This document shows positions 20,362 through 23,833 of a DNA stretch of 32,000 nt, piece after piece; within the stretch, counting starts at the first letter, position 1, and every line of letters begins with the position of its first letter. Under the pieces are notes generated by a model. It was not told the origin of the DNA and searched no databases. It saw nothing but the letters and a program-made list of their open reading frames with translations. Source of the stretch: Candidatus Methylomirabilis limnetica (GTDB lineage Bacteria > Methylomirabilota > Methylomirabilia > Methylomirabilales > Methylomirabilaceae); assembly GCF_003044035.1 (NCBI RefSeq), contig NZ_NVQC01000017.1:180001-212000 (forward strand), given 5' to 3'. The position numbers and the translations under genes are program-made.

Positions 20362-20736
20362 CTAACTGCAAGCTCCTCCCCCCACCTCTTCGGCGACGAT
20401 CCTGAGCAGTCGGTTGGGATCGAACGGCTTACCAAGGAACTCCCTCACCCCGAGGGCCATGGCCTCCCTGACTCGCTGGGCTGTCCCGTGAGCGGTAAGG
20501 ACCACCACCTTGACCGCCTCGGCCCGTTTTCGGAGCCTTCTCAGGATCTCCAACCCATCCATCTCCGGCATGACCAAATCCAGAACGATGAGGTCGGGAG
20601 GCTCTAGCTCCACGAGGGCCAGGGCCTCATGGCCGCTCCTGGCCGCCACCACCTGAAATCCCTCCTGCCCCAGGCTCTCAGTGAAGAGCCGGCAGAGGTC
20701 CTCCCCGTCATCCACCAAAAGGATCTTCCCCCTCAC
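20362..20736 (-). CDS. Receiver-only response regulator (CheY-like)
   Basis: 124 aa. [33 protein letters not shown] and FLGKPF give the complete receiver signature with no output domain. The GTG start overlaps the cdc48-like stop (GTGA). Confidence 0.85.
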
Positions 20737-22877
20737 CTCGCTCCTCCTTTCGCCAGGGCCTTCAGGGCCTCCTCAAGATGAGCCATCTTCAATGCGTAGT
20801 TCCGAAAGCCCGGATCGCTCTCCCATGGGTGAGCCTCCAGGTACTCCTCGATGGCAAACATCGTGGCTCTCCGGCAGATGGCCTCGATGTCGGCGCCCGA
20901 GCGGCCCTCGCTCTGCCGTGCCAGCGCAGCCAGATCCACATCAGGGGCCAGGGGTTTGCCTCGGGTGTGGACCCGGAGGATCTCCAGCCTCGCTGCTTCG
21001 TCGGGCAGTGGTAGCTCGATAAGGAGGTCAAACCGCCCCGGACGAAGCAGGGCGGGGTCCACCATATCCAGCCGGTTCGTGGCGGCGAGCACCACCACGC
21101 CGCGCAGTTCCTCGATCCCGTCCAGCTCCGTGAGGAGCTGGCTGATCACTCGCTCCGTCACGTGCGAGTCTCCTCCCGACCCTCGCATCGGGGCAATGGC
21201 ATCGATCTCATCGAAGAAGATCAGGCAGGGAGCCGCCTGCTTGGCTCGTTTGAAGACCTCCCGGACCCCCTTCTCCGACTCCCCCACCCACTTGGACATG
21301 AGTTGAGGCCCCTTGACGCTGATGAAGTTCGCCTGGCTTTCCGTGGCTGCGGCCTTGGCCAGCAGGGTCTTGCCAGTCCCCGGGCGACCGTAGAGGAGGA
21401 TCCCCTTGGGAGGCATAGCCCCGGCGTGCTTGAAGAGGGGAGCGTATTTCAAGGGCCACTCCATGGTTTGTTGTAGCTCCTTCTTGATTTGCTCCAAGCC
21501 GCCGATCGCCTCCCAACGGACGCTGGGGACCTCGATGGTAATCTCCCTGAGGGCGGAGGGCTCCACCTCCTTGAGGGCCTCTAAGAAGTGGGCCCGGTTG
21601 ATCCTGAGCTCCATGAGGGCCTCAAAAGGGATGGCGCCCACCTCGAACTCGATCTGAGGGAGGAGAGCGCGCAGCGCCGCCATGGCCGCCTCCCGGCAGA
21701 GGGCCTCCAAGTCCGCGCCCACGAAACCGTGGGTGATCTCGCTGAGCTCCTCAAGGTTCACATCCTCGGCCAATGGCATCCCCCGACTGTGGATCTCCAG
21801 GATCTCCAGCCGACCCTTCTTGTCCGGGATCCCGATGGTAATCTCCCGATCAAAGCGGCCTGGCCGTCGAAGAGCCGGGTCAAGGGCGTTGGGGATATTG
21901 GTGGCCCCGATGATAATCACCTGGCCCCTCCCGCGGAGGCCATCCATGAGGGCCAGGAGCTGAGCCACCACCCGCTTCTCCACCTCCCCCACCACCGTCT
22001 CGCGCTTGGGGGCAATGGCGTCTATTTCGTCGAGGAAGATGATGCTGGGGGCCTGACGTTCCGCCTCCTCGAAGAGTTTTCTGAGCTTGGCCTCCGATTC
22101 TCCGTAGAATTTGTGGATCACCTCCGGCCCGCTCACCGCGAAGAAGCGGGCGTCTGTTTCGTTGGCCACAGCCCTGGCGATGAGCGTCTTGCCACAGCCG
22201 GGTGGGCCTAGGAGCAGCACTCCTTTGGGCGCACCAATCCCCAGGCGTTCGAAGACCTCTGGATACTTCAGTGGGAGTTCGATCATCTCCCGGACCCGCT
22301 GGATCTCCCGGCGGAGCCCCCCGATGTCCTCGTAGGAAACCTTCGAGGCCTCCACAGGGCCCTCGGGCTGGCGGACGCGGAGCAGAGTGGCGGCTTGGAC
22401 GATGACAGGCCCTCCGGGCACGGTTTCCAAAACGGTGAACTCCTGAGCCGTGGTGCCGAGGATGGTGGCCCGGATCCGGTCACCGGATAGCATCGGCAAG
22501 CCCTCAATGAGCCGGGCGAGGTAGCGGGTGTCCCGCTCTCCCTTGGTCGGACGCATCGGGGAAAGGGGGGAAAGGGTGAGCCTCGCCGCCGGCCGGGCCG
22601 AGACCTTCGTCACTGTCACTCTCTCGGCCAGTCCCACCTGAGCGTTGGTCCGCGTGAGGCCGTCCACCTGGACGATCCCCTTCCCCCGGGCTTCTACGTA
22701 GGCTGGCAGGAGCTTGGCCACGGTCTGGCGCTTCCCCTGGATCTGAACGATGTCGCCCACCTCGGCGCCAAGGGCCTTCATGTCGTCAGGATCAAGGCGG
22801 GCGAGCCCCCGCCCTACGTCCTTGGGAAGGGCTTCGGCCACCCGGAGGGTGAGGGTTTTCGGAGGCCGCTCTTCCAT
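20733..22877 (-). CDS. Cdc48/VCP/p97-type AAA+ ATPase (N domain plus D1 and D2 rings)
   Basis: The N-domain is [41 protein letters not shown]. There are two Walker A sites ([18 protein letters not shown]), two Walker B sites ([18 protein letters not shown]) and SRH regions. ATG 22877 (MEERPPK) forms an ATGA overlap with the upstream stop. Confidence 0.9.
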
Positions 22878-23833
22878 CACGCAAGGCCCCGATCCGTCAC
22901 GACCACGGGATCCGCGCTGAACCACTGGATGGGAAATAGAATCTCCCTGAGCCGCTGGAGGCCCTTGACCTGCTTGGGACGCGCCAGCAGTTTGAAGATC
23001 GTGAGCTGGGGGAAGGCGTGTTCACACTCCTGAAGCAACCCTCGCTGCTCCTGCCACCGCTCGCAGCAGAAGGGGCAGGCCCCGCCCTCCGAGGAGACCA
23101 CGTGGTTCACGACCAGGCGCCGAACGGGGATCTTCAGGCGGTCGAGCTCCCCGACCAGCCGCTGGGTCTCGGCAATGGCCATCGTCTCCGGGATGGTGAC
23201 GACGACGAACTCACAGCGGGTGGGGTCGCGGAGAAGCCCTTGGATCTTCTTCACCGCCCGCTTCATGGTGAAGAGGAAGTCATCCGCGGGCTCGTGGATG
23301 TCCCGTCGAGCCAGGCGGGAGACGACGTAGCGGTACTTATACCGCATCCGGGCCAGGACCCGGATCCACTCATCCAGCAGCTCGGGGAGGGCCAGCAGGC
23401 GCAGGGCGTGGCCCGTGGGGGCCGTGTCCAGGATGTGGAAGTCGTACTCGCCCCGATCCATCAGCTCCACCAGCTCTTTAAAGGCCATCACCTCGTCGAG
23501 CCCGGGGATGGAGAGGGGGAAGAGGTCGTCGATATCTCCCTCGTCCAGATAGGTCCCGGTTTCCAGAATGCGCTTGATCTCCTCGCCATGCTCCTCCTTG
23601 AACTTCAGGAAGAGCCGCTGGGCCGAGATTTCCAACGCCGAGAGGTTCGCGACCCCTTCGATCTTCTGAACCTCAGGGCCGATCTCCAGCTCGAGACAGT
23701 CGGAGAGGGAGTGGGCCGGGTCGGTCGAAACCAGGAGCGTCCGGCATCCAGCGTCGGCGAGCTGGACGGCCGCGGCCGAGGCACACGTGGTCTTACCGAC
23801 CCCCCCCTTGCCGCCGAAGAGGATCAGCTTCAC
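22877..23833 (-). CDS. ArsA/Get3-family P-loop ATPase
   Basis: Deviant Walker [23 protein letters not shown], and the switch II signature [13 protein letters not shown]. There is a Cys cluster, [11 protein letters not shown]. The GTG start overlaps the Hsp20 stop (GTGA). Confidence 0.85.

Follow-up and report, generated by a model that had tools for sequence, protein, structure and literature searches.

A chaperone and unfoldase gene set within a gas vesicle gene cluster of Candidatus Methylomirabilis limnetica and its conservation in other gas vesicle clusters

GvpN is the only ATPase normally considered in gas vesicle systems (PMC9501494), and the locus described here is a gas vesicle (gvp) gene cluster that carries two further ATPases together with a heat-shock protein. 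The locus lies in a 32,000-nucleotide stretch of Candidatus Methylomirabilis limnetica, a methane-oxidizing bacterium from a lake (contig NZ_NVQC01000017.1, positions 180,001 to 212,000), referred to below as the window. In the middle of its gvp cluster, genes for a small heat-shock protein (sHsp) of the Hsp20 family, a Get3/ArsA-like ATPase and a Cdc48/VAT-type double-ring AAA+ ATPase follow one another and are in turn followed by a gene for a CheY-like receiver (REC). How the hydrophobic GvpA stays soluble, is delivered and is assembled, and whether collapsed vesicles are recycled, are open questions in gas vesicle biology. Comparative genomics strongly supports a functional link of the module to gas vesicles, and the explanation that is somewhat favored here is that Hsp20, the Get3-like protein and Cdc48 form a dedicated ATP-driven holdase/unfoldase network for wall proteins of the GvpA/J/M type.

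The cluster itself is clear. GvpA and GvpN occur together with GvpF/L, GvpG, GvpJ/M-type and GvpK genes in a single array (17693-31439), all with Pfam scores above the cut-offs, which identifies it as a gvp cluster. The Hsp20-Get3-Cdc48-REC set lies mid-array with gvp genes on either side, with GvpA, GvpN, three GvpF/L genes, GvpG and GvpJ upstream and a GvpF/L gene, a GvpA/J/M-like gene, another GvpF/L gene and GvpK downstream. A first-pass annotation of the window had described open reading frames (ORFs) in the order Hsp20, ArsA/Get3-like, Cdc48-like and CheY-like with overlapping start and stop codons, and this is confirmed from the sequence, the three overlaps being 4, 1 and 4 nt. The interval that it named, 20733-23833, runs exactly from the ArsA start to the Cdc48 stop. 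Of the junctions it gave, both GTGA overlaps are correct (Hsp20/ArsA at 23833-23830, and Cdc48/REC at 20736-20733 with AGGAGG 6 nt upstream), but the middle one, given as ATGA, reads TGATG. The sequence there is gcGTGATGg, in which the TGA stop (22879-22877) and the ATG start (22877-22875) share 1 nt. An alternative in-frame GTG start for Cdc48 at 22880 would make a GTGA overlap at this junction as well. The ATG start is favored because a public 714-aa protein (P0001), which is itself a Candidatus Methylomirabilis limnetica protein (phylum NC10), matches with 100% identity and coverage, and because a related cluster (L001) has the same 1-nt overlap. The packing continues downstream, where REC and an unannotated protein designated p230 are separated by 4 nt and p230 shares 1 nt with the next GvpF/L gene. 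When 17-32 kb was scanned for consensus sites, 0 promoter-like and 7 terminator-like sites were found compared to 1.7 and 9.8 expected from shuffled sequence. Internal sites are thus not in excess, and with counts below those of shuffled sequence the scan is uninformative on sub-operons.

The Cdc48/VCP-type identity assigned at first pass stands, and by its family membership the protein is predicted to be a hexameric double-ring unfoldase. Pfam detects CDC48_N (8.6e-26), CDC48_2 (2.8e-8), two AAA domains (3.4e-92) and two AAA_lid_3 domains, with the N-domain matches above their cut-offs, so that a double-psi barrel and beta-clam are followed by D1 and D2. The score against the CDC48 model TIGR01243 is 961.8 bits (cut-off 802.65), and the best solved relative is Thermoplasma VAT (5g4f, 2.2e-231). 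D1 has the Walker A motif GPPGCGKT, the pore loop KFYG and the Walker B residue E284; the corresponding elements of D2 are GRPGTGKT, KWVG and E557. The Walker A and B motifs and the arginine fingers are intact in both rings, and in an alignment of 86 sequences the pore loops are kept across the clade as well as in the sampled archaeal homologues, to which the window protein is 55-62% identical. Because the pore loops are aromatic in both rings, the protein is read as a processive threader. The HbYX proteasome-docking tail, which is typical for archaeal Cdc48 without being family-defining, was not found in the window protein, whose C-terminus reads ...KALAKGGAR. A penultimate Tyr was present in none of the 71 bacterial sequences and in 4 of the 15 archaeal ones (L042, L072, L081, L082).

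Two smaller sequence features of the bacterial proteins were also seen. The Cys in the D1 Walker A motif (window residues 224-231) occurs in 50 of the 71 bacterial sequences, where the archaeal proteins mostly have GPPGTGKT, and a His before the D1 pore loop (HKFYG; window residues 255-261) occurs in 51 of 71, where the archaeal proteins mostly have SK[FY]YG. A comparison of gvp-linked with archaeal Cdc48 gave just four weakly discriminating positions, none of them interpretable. An anti-phage defense system was considered and rejected, as PADLOC returned only generic AAA-domain similarity to IetA and TRIP13; the same search gave no matches for Hsp20 or p230 and no partner protease.

The Get3/ArsA-like identity is likewise upheld. 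The protein matches Pfam ArsA_ATPase at 2e-75 and TIGR00345 (GET3_arsA_TRC40) with 255.9 bits against a cut-off of 135, and its deviant Walker A P-loop and switch II (DTAPTGH) are both invariant in the homologue alignment (A2). A CxxC motif (C253-P-F-C256), which does not vary among 32 homologues, lines up with the CDFC of Methanocaldococcus jannaschii Get3 (3ug6), which makes it a candidate for the zinc-bridging motif of a Get3-type homodimer. The best sequence matches in the PDB are Chlamydomonas ARSA1 and archaeal Get3. In the AlphaFold 2 (AF2) model (predicted local distance difference test, pLDDT, 82; predicted template modeling score, pTM, 0.82) the single domain has the Get3 fold, including a predicted alpha-helical client-binding subdomain. 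The best Foldseek match is archaeal TRC40/Get3 (3zq6; template modeling (TM) score 0.77-0.81 over ~300 residues), and the top 50 matches are all Get3/TRC40 proteins, among them yeast Get3 bound to a transmembrane domain, and not E. coli ArsA. Judged by eye from the translation, the helical subdomain is not obviously Met-rich.

Hsp20 is proposed to be the holdase partner of Cdc48. It matches Pfam HSP20 (2.5e-9; 37.6 bits against 20.8) and ArsA_HSP20 (1.5e-4), and it passes the NCBIfam equivalog model NF041800 for archaeal Hsp20 with 159.4 bits against 140. A C-terminal I-x-I motif was not seen by eye in this protein, which ends right after the last beta-strand. The GvpJ-like protein encoded directly upstream is a candidate client, and the gene order J-Hsp20 is found again in many loci. 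Two further genes of the cluster have a chaperone character. One GvpL/F protein (GvpL_GvpF, 1.2e-59) carries a C-terminal J-domain (DnaJ, 1.4e-7) with the HPD motif and is a potential recruiter of Hsp70; the same fusion, called GvpL-J here, is present in L001, L003 and L116-L119. Directly upstream of it, a separate protein has about six CxxCxGxG repeats (DnaJ_CXXCXGXG, 6.3e-13; 49.2 bits against 32.7), with a counterpart in Candidatus Hakubella (L003). The pair resembles a DnaJ divided over two adjacent genes of the gvp cluster. The actinobacterial Candidatus Hakubella thermalkaliphila cluster (L003/L004, 10001-22178) carries Cdc48, a two-domain ArsA of 652 aa and Hsp20, and it has an Hsp70 gene at its end.

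Whether the module belongs to gas vesicle clusters in general was judged from its neighborhoods in other genomes. On the Cdc48 side, the 80 best-matching loci were taken with one genome per species, giving 65 bacterial and 15 archaeal loci, and these were searched with the window Gvp proteins, linkage being scored as gvp structural genes within 10 kb. Such genes were found in 59 of the 65 bacterial loci, and in all 38 of those with at least 5 kb on both sides. Hsp20 is present in 60 of the 65; in 54 it is the immediate upstream neighbor of Cdc48, in the same orientation. Four of the six loci without gvp matches are short contigs that still show Hsp20-Cdc48-p230. The linkage is kept down to about 58% identity and across about 15 phylum-level labels (among them NC10, Actinomycetota, Bacillota, Desulfobacterota, Chloroflexota, Planctomycetota, Nitrospirota, Atribacterota, Acidobacteriota, Bacteroidota, Alpha- and Gammaproteobacteria including Thiocapsa, Myxococcota, Lentisphaerota, Sumerlaeota and Omnitrophota), and further gvp-linked examples come from NC10 metagenomes, Candidatus Hakubella and Desulfofundulus. 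From the ArsA side, all 30 metagenomic loci (46-98% identity) have the order GvpJ-Hsp20-ArsA-Cdc48(-REC-p230) as far as the contigs reach, bar two (L091 and L102), and three more ArsA homologues at ~53% identity, from Omnitrophica, Nitrospirota and one further genome, show the same order.

These neighborhoods bear on the first-pass annotation in several ways. It had taken a wide occurrence of the ArsA-like/Cdc48-like pair without gvp genes as grounds to give up its reading, and the opposite was found on both the Cdc48 side (59 of 65 loci) and the ArsA side (30 plus 3 loci). It had also called Cdc48 uncommon in bacteria; many phyla have it, although in the sampled clade it is nearly always inside gvp clusters. 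Finally, the gvp linkage of the pair is borne out, but the conserved core is Hsp20 followed by Cdc48 and not ArsA followed by Cdc48. A single-domain ArsA lies between Hsp20 and Cdc48, directly upstream of the latter, in 12 of the 65 bacterial loci, and ArsA, REC and p230 are frequent additions to the core.

The core is embedded in clusters that are otherwise extensively rearranged. Type I clusters have the order A, N, Hsp20, ArsA, Cdc48, F, F, F, G, F, M, K, J, of which the window is the NC10 variant. Type II clusters read p230, REC, Hsp20, Cdc48, F, F, (REC), A, N, F, (two-domain ArsA), M, K, J, and Type III clusters read A, N, F, (two-domain ArsA), M, K, J, (p230), Hsp20, Cdc48, F, F. A Chloroflexi form has Hsp20, Cdc48, p230. 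Where these other Cdc48-bearing clusters have a two-domain ArsA, as in Hakubella (652 aa), it lies elsewhere in the cluster. Among the archaeal loci, 12 or 13 of the 15 are without gvp genes, and in three of those (L067, L072 and L073, of Methanocella type and Nitrososphaeria) Hsp20 nevertheless adjoins Cdc48. Contigs of two archaeal metagenome-assembled genomes (L028 and L039; LFW-280_4 and Methanoperedens) have gvp or p230 genes beside Cdc48.

A neighbor-joining (NJ) distance tree of 86 Cdc48 sequences (71 bacterial, 15 archaeal; 100 bootstraps) supports a distinct gvp-linked Cdc48 clade, as far as sequence distances can. The 12 housekeeping archaeal proteins, which have no gvp neighbors, were split from all others in 100 of 100 bootstraps, and the others are nearly all gvp-linked. 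Branching among the bacterial proteins ignores phylum boundaries, with Acidobacteriota in three places, which fits spread together with gvp clusters. The remaining archaeal proteins, L023, L028 and L039, form a 98% group that falls with the archaea in 59 of 100 bootstraps, an unstable placement; L028 and L039 are linked to gvp or p230, while L023 is on a 2.7-kb contig without context. The first-pass annotation had raised an archaeal origin for the ATPases. Archaeal affinity is plausible for all three proteins of the module because VAT is the best solved match of Cdc48, the archaeal Hsp20 equivalog model is passed and archaeal TRC40/Get3 is the best structural match, but the direction of transfer between archaea and bacteria is not given by this tree.

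Parts of this arrangement have been reported before. Castillo and Saier (2010) described ArsA homologues and hsp20 in gvp clusters of Chlorobi/Bacteroidetes, Geobacter, cyanobacteria and Acidobacteria, found the gvp-linked arsA genes without ars partners and proposed that the ATPase energizes a step of biogenesis (PMC2963123). The first-pass statement that the combination is not part of any known gvp cluster was therefore too strong, as ArsA and hsp20 were published in 2010 and the full combination is widespread in public genomes. However, the proteins of Castillo and Saier are two-domain proteins of ~600 aa, and no Cdc48 gene is mentioned, whereas the window protein is a single-domain protein of 318 aa with a CxxC motif and lies between Hsp20 and Cdc48. 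Similarly, the published description of Candidatus Hakubella notes hsp20 near gvp genes and leaves the Cdc48 and ArsA genes of the cluster unmentioned. In a full-text literature search, whose coverage did not extend to subscription-only papers, no paper linking Cdc48 to bacterial gvp clusters was found. Co-mentions of gas vesicles and Cdc48 were confined to haloarchaeal papers, and the mention that was checked is unrelated to gas vesicles; gas vesicles with Get3 or with 'transitional endoplasmic reticulum ATPase' returned nothing, and with 'unfoldase' only ClpX engineering work. In the searchable literature, the Hsp20-Cdc48 core that marks a large class of gvp clusters in bacteria thus appears to be undescribed.

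Comparison with known systems shows where the module is familiar and where it departs. Like Thermoplasma VAT and archaeal Cdc48, the window Cdc48 has the N-D1-D2 layout, aromatic pore loops and intact Walker motifs and arginine fingers; unlike them, its gene is bacterial and, within the sampled clade, nearly always part of a gvp cluster, and it is without the HbYX tail of 4 of the 15 archaeal proteins and in an NJ group apart from the 12 housekeeping archaeal ones. At their core, the Phr and HSR1 heat-shock regulons of Euryarchaeota have in common an sHsp gene and an AAA+ ATPase gene (PMC10653856). The same two families are paired here, and their adjacency recurs in the three archaeal loci named above, but the window pair is inside an organelle cluster and co-inherited with it, and no Phr-like regulator was seen. 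The Get3-like protein shares the P-loop, switch II, CxxC motif and full-length fold (TM 0.7-0.8) with Get3/TRC40 (3zq6, 3ug6); its partners, in contrast, are an sHsp and an unfoldase, and no Get1/2- or Get4/5-like partners were seen, receptor homologues not having been searched for. Members of the A-J-M family aggregate without chaperones, and the non-essential haloarchaeal GvpH prevents aggregation of GvpM (2022 review, PMC9501494). The window Hsp20 may play the same anti-aggregation role as GvpH, from which it differs in having no Pfam GvpH match, in fitting generic and archaeal Hsp20 models and in being paired with an AAA+ unfoldase. By analogy only, the cluster resembles the bacterial sHsp-Hsp70/DnaJ-ClpB disaggregase, since it encodes in one place a holdase of the sHsp type, DnaJ elements in the form of a J-domain and a zinc finger, and a threading motor of the double-ring AAA+ kind; unlike ClpB/Hsp104, the motor is of Cdc48/VAT type without a middle domain, and the J-domain is fused to GvpL and not to DnaJ.

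From the observed identities, intact motifs, tight operon packing and gvp linkage we infer both the clients of the network and the direction in which it acts. Members of the sHsp family act as holdases for unfolding or hydrophobic proteins. The ATP-closed dimer of Get3 has a groove in which hydrophobic helices are shielded, and VAT/Cdc48 is a threading machine that unfolds proteins and draws them out of assemblies. In the proposed order of events, the sHsp would first capture aggregation-prone hydrophobic proteins of the GvpA/J/M family. The Get3-like dimer would then shield the hydrophobic helices of at least one Gvp protein in its ATP-closed groove, and the Cdc48 ring would pull Gvp subunits from sHsp-bound, mis-assembled or collapsed material, after which the subunits might be assembled, re-used or removed. 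The J-domain on GvpL and the DnaJ zinc-finger protein add weight to this reading, as does the Hsp70 that ends the Hakubella cluster. Assembly, quality control and recycling of collapsed vesicles, or feeding of the growing tip, are each compatible with the data, the last two being the roles put forward at first pass. As to origin, an archaeal-type sHsp-Cdc48 heat-shock pair may have been captured by a gvp cluster and then moved with gvp clusters across phyla.

Several observations weigh against the holdase/unfoldase network. The identity of the clients is guessed from hydrophobicity and gene order alone. To our knowledge, the four model systems of the field (Halobacterium, cyanobacteria such as Anabaena, Bacillus megaterium and Serratia; reviewed in PMC9501494) make vesicles without Cdc48 or ArsA, and therefore the module is not universally required. 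In two bacterial loci, L019 (Nitrospinota) and L043 (Chloroherpetonaceae), Cdc48 lies among housekeeping genes, with neither Hsp20 nor gvp genes nearby, and two close relatives, L091 (4552-6500) and L102, with ArsA ~80% identical, run from Hsp20-ArsA directly to REC-p230 without Cdc48. One caveat of the tree is the fact that it was made with a crude distance method from the 80 best matches and is biased toward relatives of a gvp-linked query. As to the particulars of these loci, the neighbors of Cdc48 are rho, bacA, a glycosyltransferase gene and recO in one of L043 and L019 and an aminotransferase gene and an F-type gene of a type II secretion system in the other, and L091 and L102 look like a clean loss of the unfoldase with the rest of the module kept.

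That gvp clusters of about 15 phyla keep an Hsp20-Cdc48 core, in many cases together with a Get3-like ATPase, points to a second, far stronger ATP-driven machine besides GvpN. Such a machine would also place Cdc48-family proteins of bacteria, about whose roles little is known, in a concrete cellular context. The finding has a practical aspect as well. In E. coli, the majority of natural gvp clusters do not yield vesicles, and clusters have been picked on purpose for having few 'non-gvp' genes (PMC10344784). The overlooked chaperone genes are candidates to include when gvp clusters are transplanted for acoustic reporter genes.

The main rival concerns the two genes that follow Cdc48. The receiver has all the expected residues, with DD in the acidic pocket, LIVLDLVMP around the phospho-acceptor Asp and both the T and the K that are conserved in such domains, and is co-conserved with the module, and p230 is likely to be its output partner. 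Members of the p230 family, which has 1281 representatives at 50% clustering and relatives annotated only as hypothetical, were found in 43 of the 65 bacterial Cdc48 loci; the gene is directly downstream of Cdc48 in L012, L014, L022, L026, L028, L039 and L056. A receiver is fused to a p230-family domain in P0177, in P0361 and in the partial P0373. P0177 comes from a single 1.8-kb contig and alone could be an assembly artefact, and the fusion is given more weight because P0361 is independent. Conserved residues of p230 are PIIH11, YQDG67-70, E77, GTE107-109, RD151-152 and GxxH177, of which PIIH11, E77, RD151-152 and GxxH177 resemble motifs of the TraB/Tiki-ChaN superfamily. Its Pfam matches to Cofac_haem_bdg (0.016) and TraB_PrgY_gumN (0.039) are weak and under the cut-offs; TraB_PrgY_gumN is matched by 11 of 35 p230 homologues, with 4e-4 as the best value, and families outside the superfamily by at most two each. 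In Foldseek the AF2 model (pLDDT 89) gives ChaN (2g5g; E 0.12, TM 0.36) at rank 1 and HopBA1 at rank 3, neither of them significant, and a profile search of the PDB with p230 returned nothing meaningful. p230 is thus possibly a remote domain of the TraB/PrgY/GumN-Tiki-ChaN superfamily, with signals below significance that serve as a lead only.

It is possible, though on balance unlikely, that Cdc48, the receiver and p230 as a putative metal-dependent hydrolase constitute a regulated teardown system that, under two-component control, dismantles or degrades existing or collapsed vesicle walls or surplus Gvp subunits. This would serve active buoyancy loss or the clearance of debris, with Hsp20 and Get3 handling the released subunits. 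The co-conservation of REC and p230 with Cdc48 (p230 in 43 of 65 loci), the REC-p230 fusions, the weak TraB/Tiki-like signals and the conserved His, Glu and Arg of p230 all agree with it, and the unfoldase-type pore loops together with the missing proteasome-docking tail make a different downstream partner conceivable. However, the fold and family matches of p230 are below significance, as given above, many Cdc48-bearing clusters have no detectable p230 or REC, and teardown leaves unexplained why the module sits between assembly genes. In addition, we know of no protease activity for most members of the TraB/Tiki-ChaN superfamily. A related idea, which is offered as doubtful, is that the gvp-dedicated Cdc48 clade, always together with an archaeal-type sHsp and often with a Get3-like protein, a receiver and a TraB/Tiki-like hydrolase, is an ATP-driven machine that extracts subunits from the assembled or collapsed wall. 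If this were true, it would mean regulated recycling or removal of vesicles and loss of buoyancy, and the first bacterial Cdc48 with a defined organelle client.

The receiver also enters into a different and distinctly improbable explanation, in which Cdc48 acts not on structural proteins but on a transcriptional regulator of the gvp genes, by unfolding or removing it. Haloarchaeal GvpD lowers GvpE, an outcome analogous to such regulatory proteolysis. Receivers, histidine kinases and sigma-54 activators do surround the clusters, and in the window a receiver gene directly follows Cdc48. However, the invariant neighbor of Cdc48 is the sHsp and the next commonest are GvpF/L genes, and not a regulator; in many architectures the regulators are far from Cdc48, and the sHsp, Get3 and J-domain point to hydrophobic or aggregated clients.

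It is also very unlikely that Hsp20-(ArsA)-Cdc48 serves heat shock or disaggregation in general and, as an operon that has come to rest in a mobile gvp island, has no vesicle-specific role. Such hitch-hiking is suggested by the Hsp20-Cdc48 adjacency in archaea without gvp genes (L067, L072, L073), which is the pairing known from the heat-shock regulons, and by the Cdc48 genes outside gvp clusters in L019 and L043. However, at least four cluster architectures keep Hsp20-Cdc48 inside the gvp array in about 15 phyla despite the extensive rearrangement, the genes are translationally coupled to their gvp neighbors, and a passenger would be expected to drop out or become detached at a far higher rate than the 6 of 65 loci seen here. 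A canonical ArsA-family role unrelated to gas vesicles, that is, energizing arsenite efflux or targeting tail-anchored membrane proteins, is hardly credible, since TIGR00345 membership and the Get3-like fold are set against a single domain in place of two, scores that fall well short of the cut-offs of the ArsA equivalogs (141.7 against 650 for TIGR04291 and 157.5 against 800 for NF041417), no ars genes among the annotated (Pfam-scanned) neighbors in the window, the gvp-linked arsA genes without ars partners of Castillo and Saier (PMC2963123), and sampled relatives that down to 46% identity sit between Hsp20 and Cdc48 in gvp clusters (in L091 and L102 without Cdc48); a role in arsenic resistance is rejected on the scores and the missing ars context.

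The features of the array are collected in Table 1.

Table 1. Genes of the gvp array in the window, in order of transcription (positions are those of the window)
Feature	Position	Strand	Basis and remarks
gvp array, co-directional, ~14 kb	17693..31869	(-)	Pfam scans, ORF list, check of GC content at third codon positions (GC3)
Receiver domain (REC)	31495-31869	(-)	Pfam; first gene of the array
GvpA	31218-31439	(-)	Pfam
Two unknown proteins, 204 and 215 aa	29929-31201	(-)	Between GvpA and GvpN; without family assignment
GvpN	28713-29633	(-)	Pfam
AbrB/MazE-like protein (SpoVT-AbrB fold), 58 aa	28530-28706	(-)	Directly after gvpN
Unknown protein, 106 aa	28196-28516	(-)	Without family assignment
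Stand-alone DnaJ-type zinc-finger protein, 133 aa	27765-28166	(-)	Pfam DnaJ_CXXCXGXG
GvpL/F with C-terminal J-domain (GvpL-J)	26716-27768	(-)	Pfam GvpL_GvpF and DnaJ
Two GvpF/L genes	Between GvpL-J and GvpG	(-)	Pfam
GvpG	24864-25196	(-)	Pfam
Small double zinc ribbon	24665-24892	(-)	Pfam DZR 1.1e-8; between gvpG and the gvpJ-like gene
GvpJ-like, GvpA/J/M family, 97 aa	24362-24655	(-)	Pfam Gas_vesicle 1.6e-17; best NCBIfam match GvpJ
Hsp20, 171 aa	23830-24345	(-)	Pfam HSP20, NCBIfam NF041800
Get3/ArsA-like ATPase, single domain, 318 aa	22877-23833	(-)	Pfam ArsA_ATPase, TIGR00345
Cdc48/VAT-type double-ring AAA+ ATPase, 714 aa	20733-22877	(-)	Pfam, TIGR01243
CheY-like receiver, 124 aa	20362-20736	(-)	Pfam Response_reg 1.9e-31
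p230, unannotated protein, 204 aa	19743-20357	(-)	No Pfam or NCBIfam family above threshold
GvpF/L	18940-19743	(-)	Pfam
GvpA/J/M-like	18741-19022	(-)	Pfam
GvpF/L	18009-18737	(-)	Pfam
GvpK	17693-18133	(-)	Pfam

Beyond the array, the plus strand below 17.5 kb carries unrelated genes for a methyltransferase, a multicopper oxidase, ApbE and an ABC transporter (Pfam). The three array proteins without a family (p204, p215 and p106) are kept in the related clusters L001, L008, L025, L041 and L095. A counterpart of the AbrB/MazE-like protein, 55-56 aa long and with the same Pfam match, occupies the same position in Candidatus Hakubella (L003) and in Omnitrophica (L116), and the double zinc-ribbon gene is kept at the same place in L001 and Candidatus Hakubella (L003). 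Finally, in L120 (9608-16533) REC-p230, a sigma-54 activator, an Hsp20 with a faint GvpH match and Cdc48 lie beside phage-like genes. No gvp structural genes are in the 20 kb of this locus, which may be a detached module or may have its gvp genes beyond the locus.

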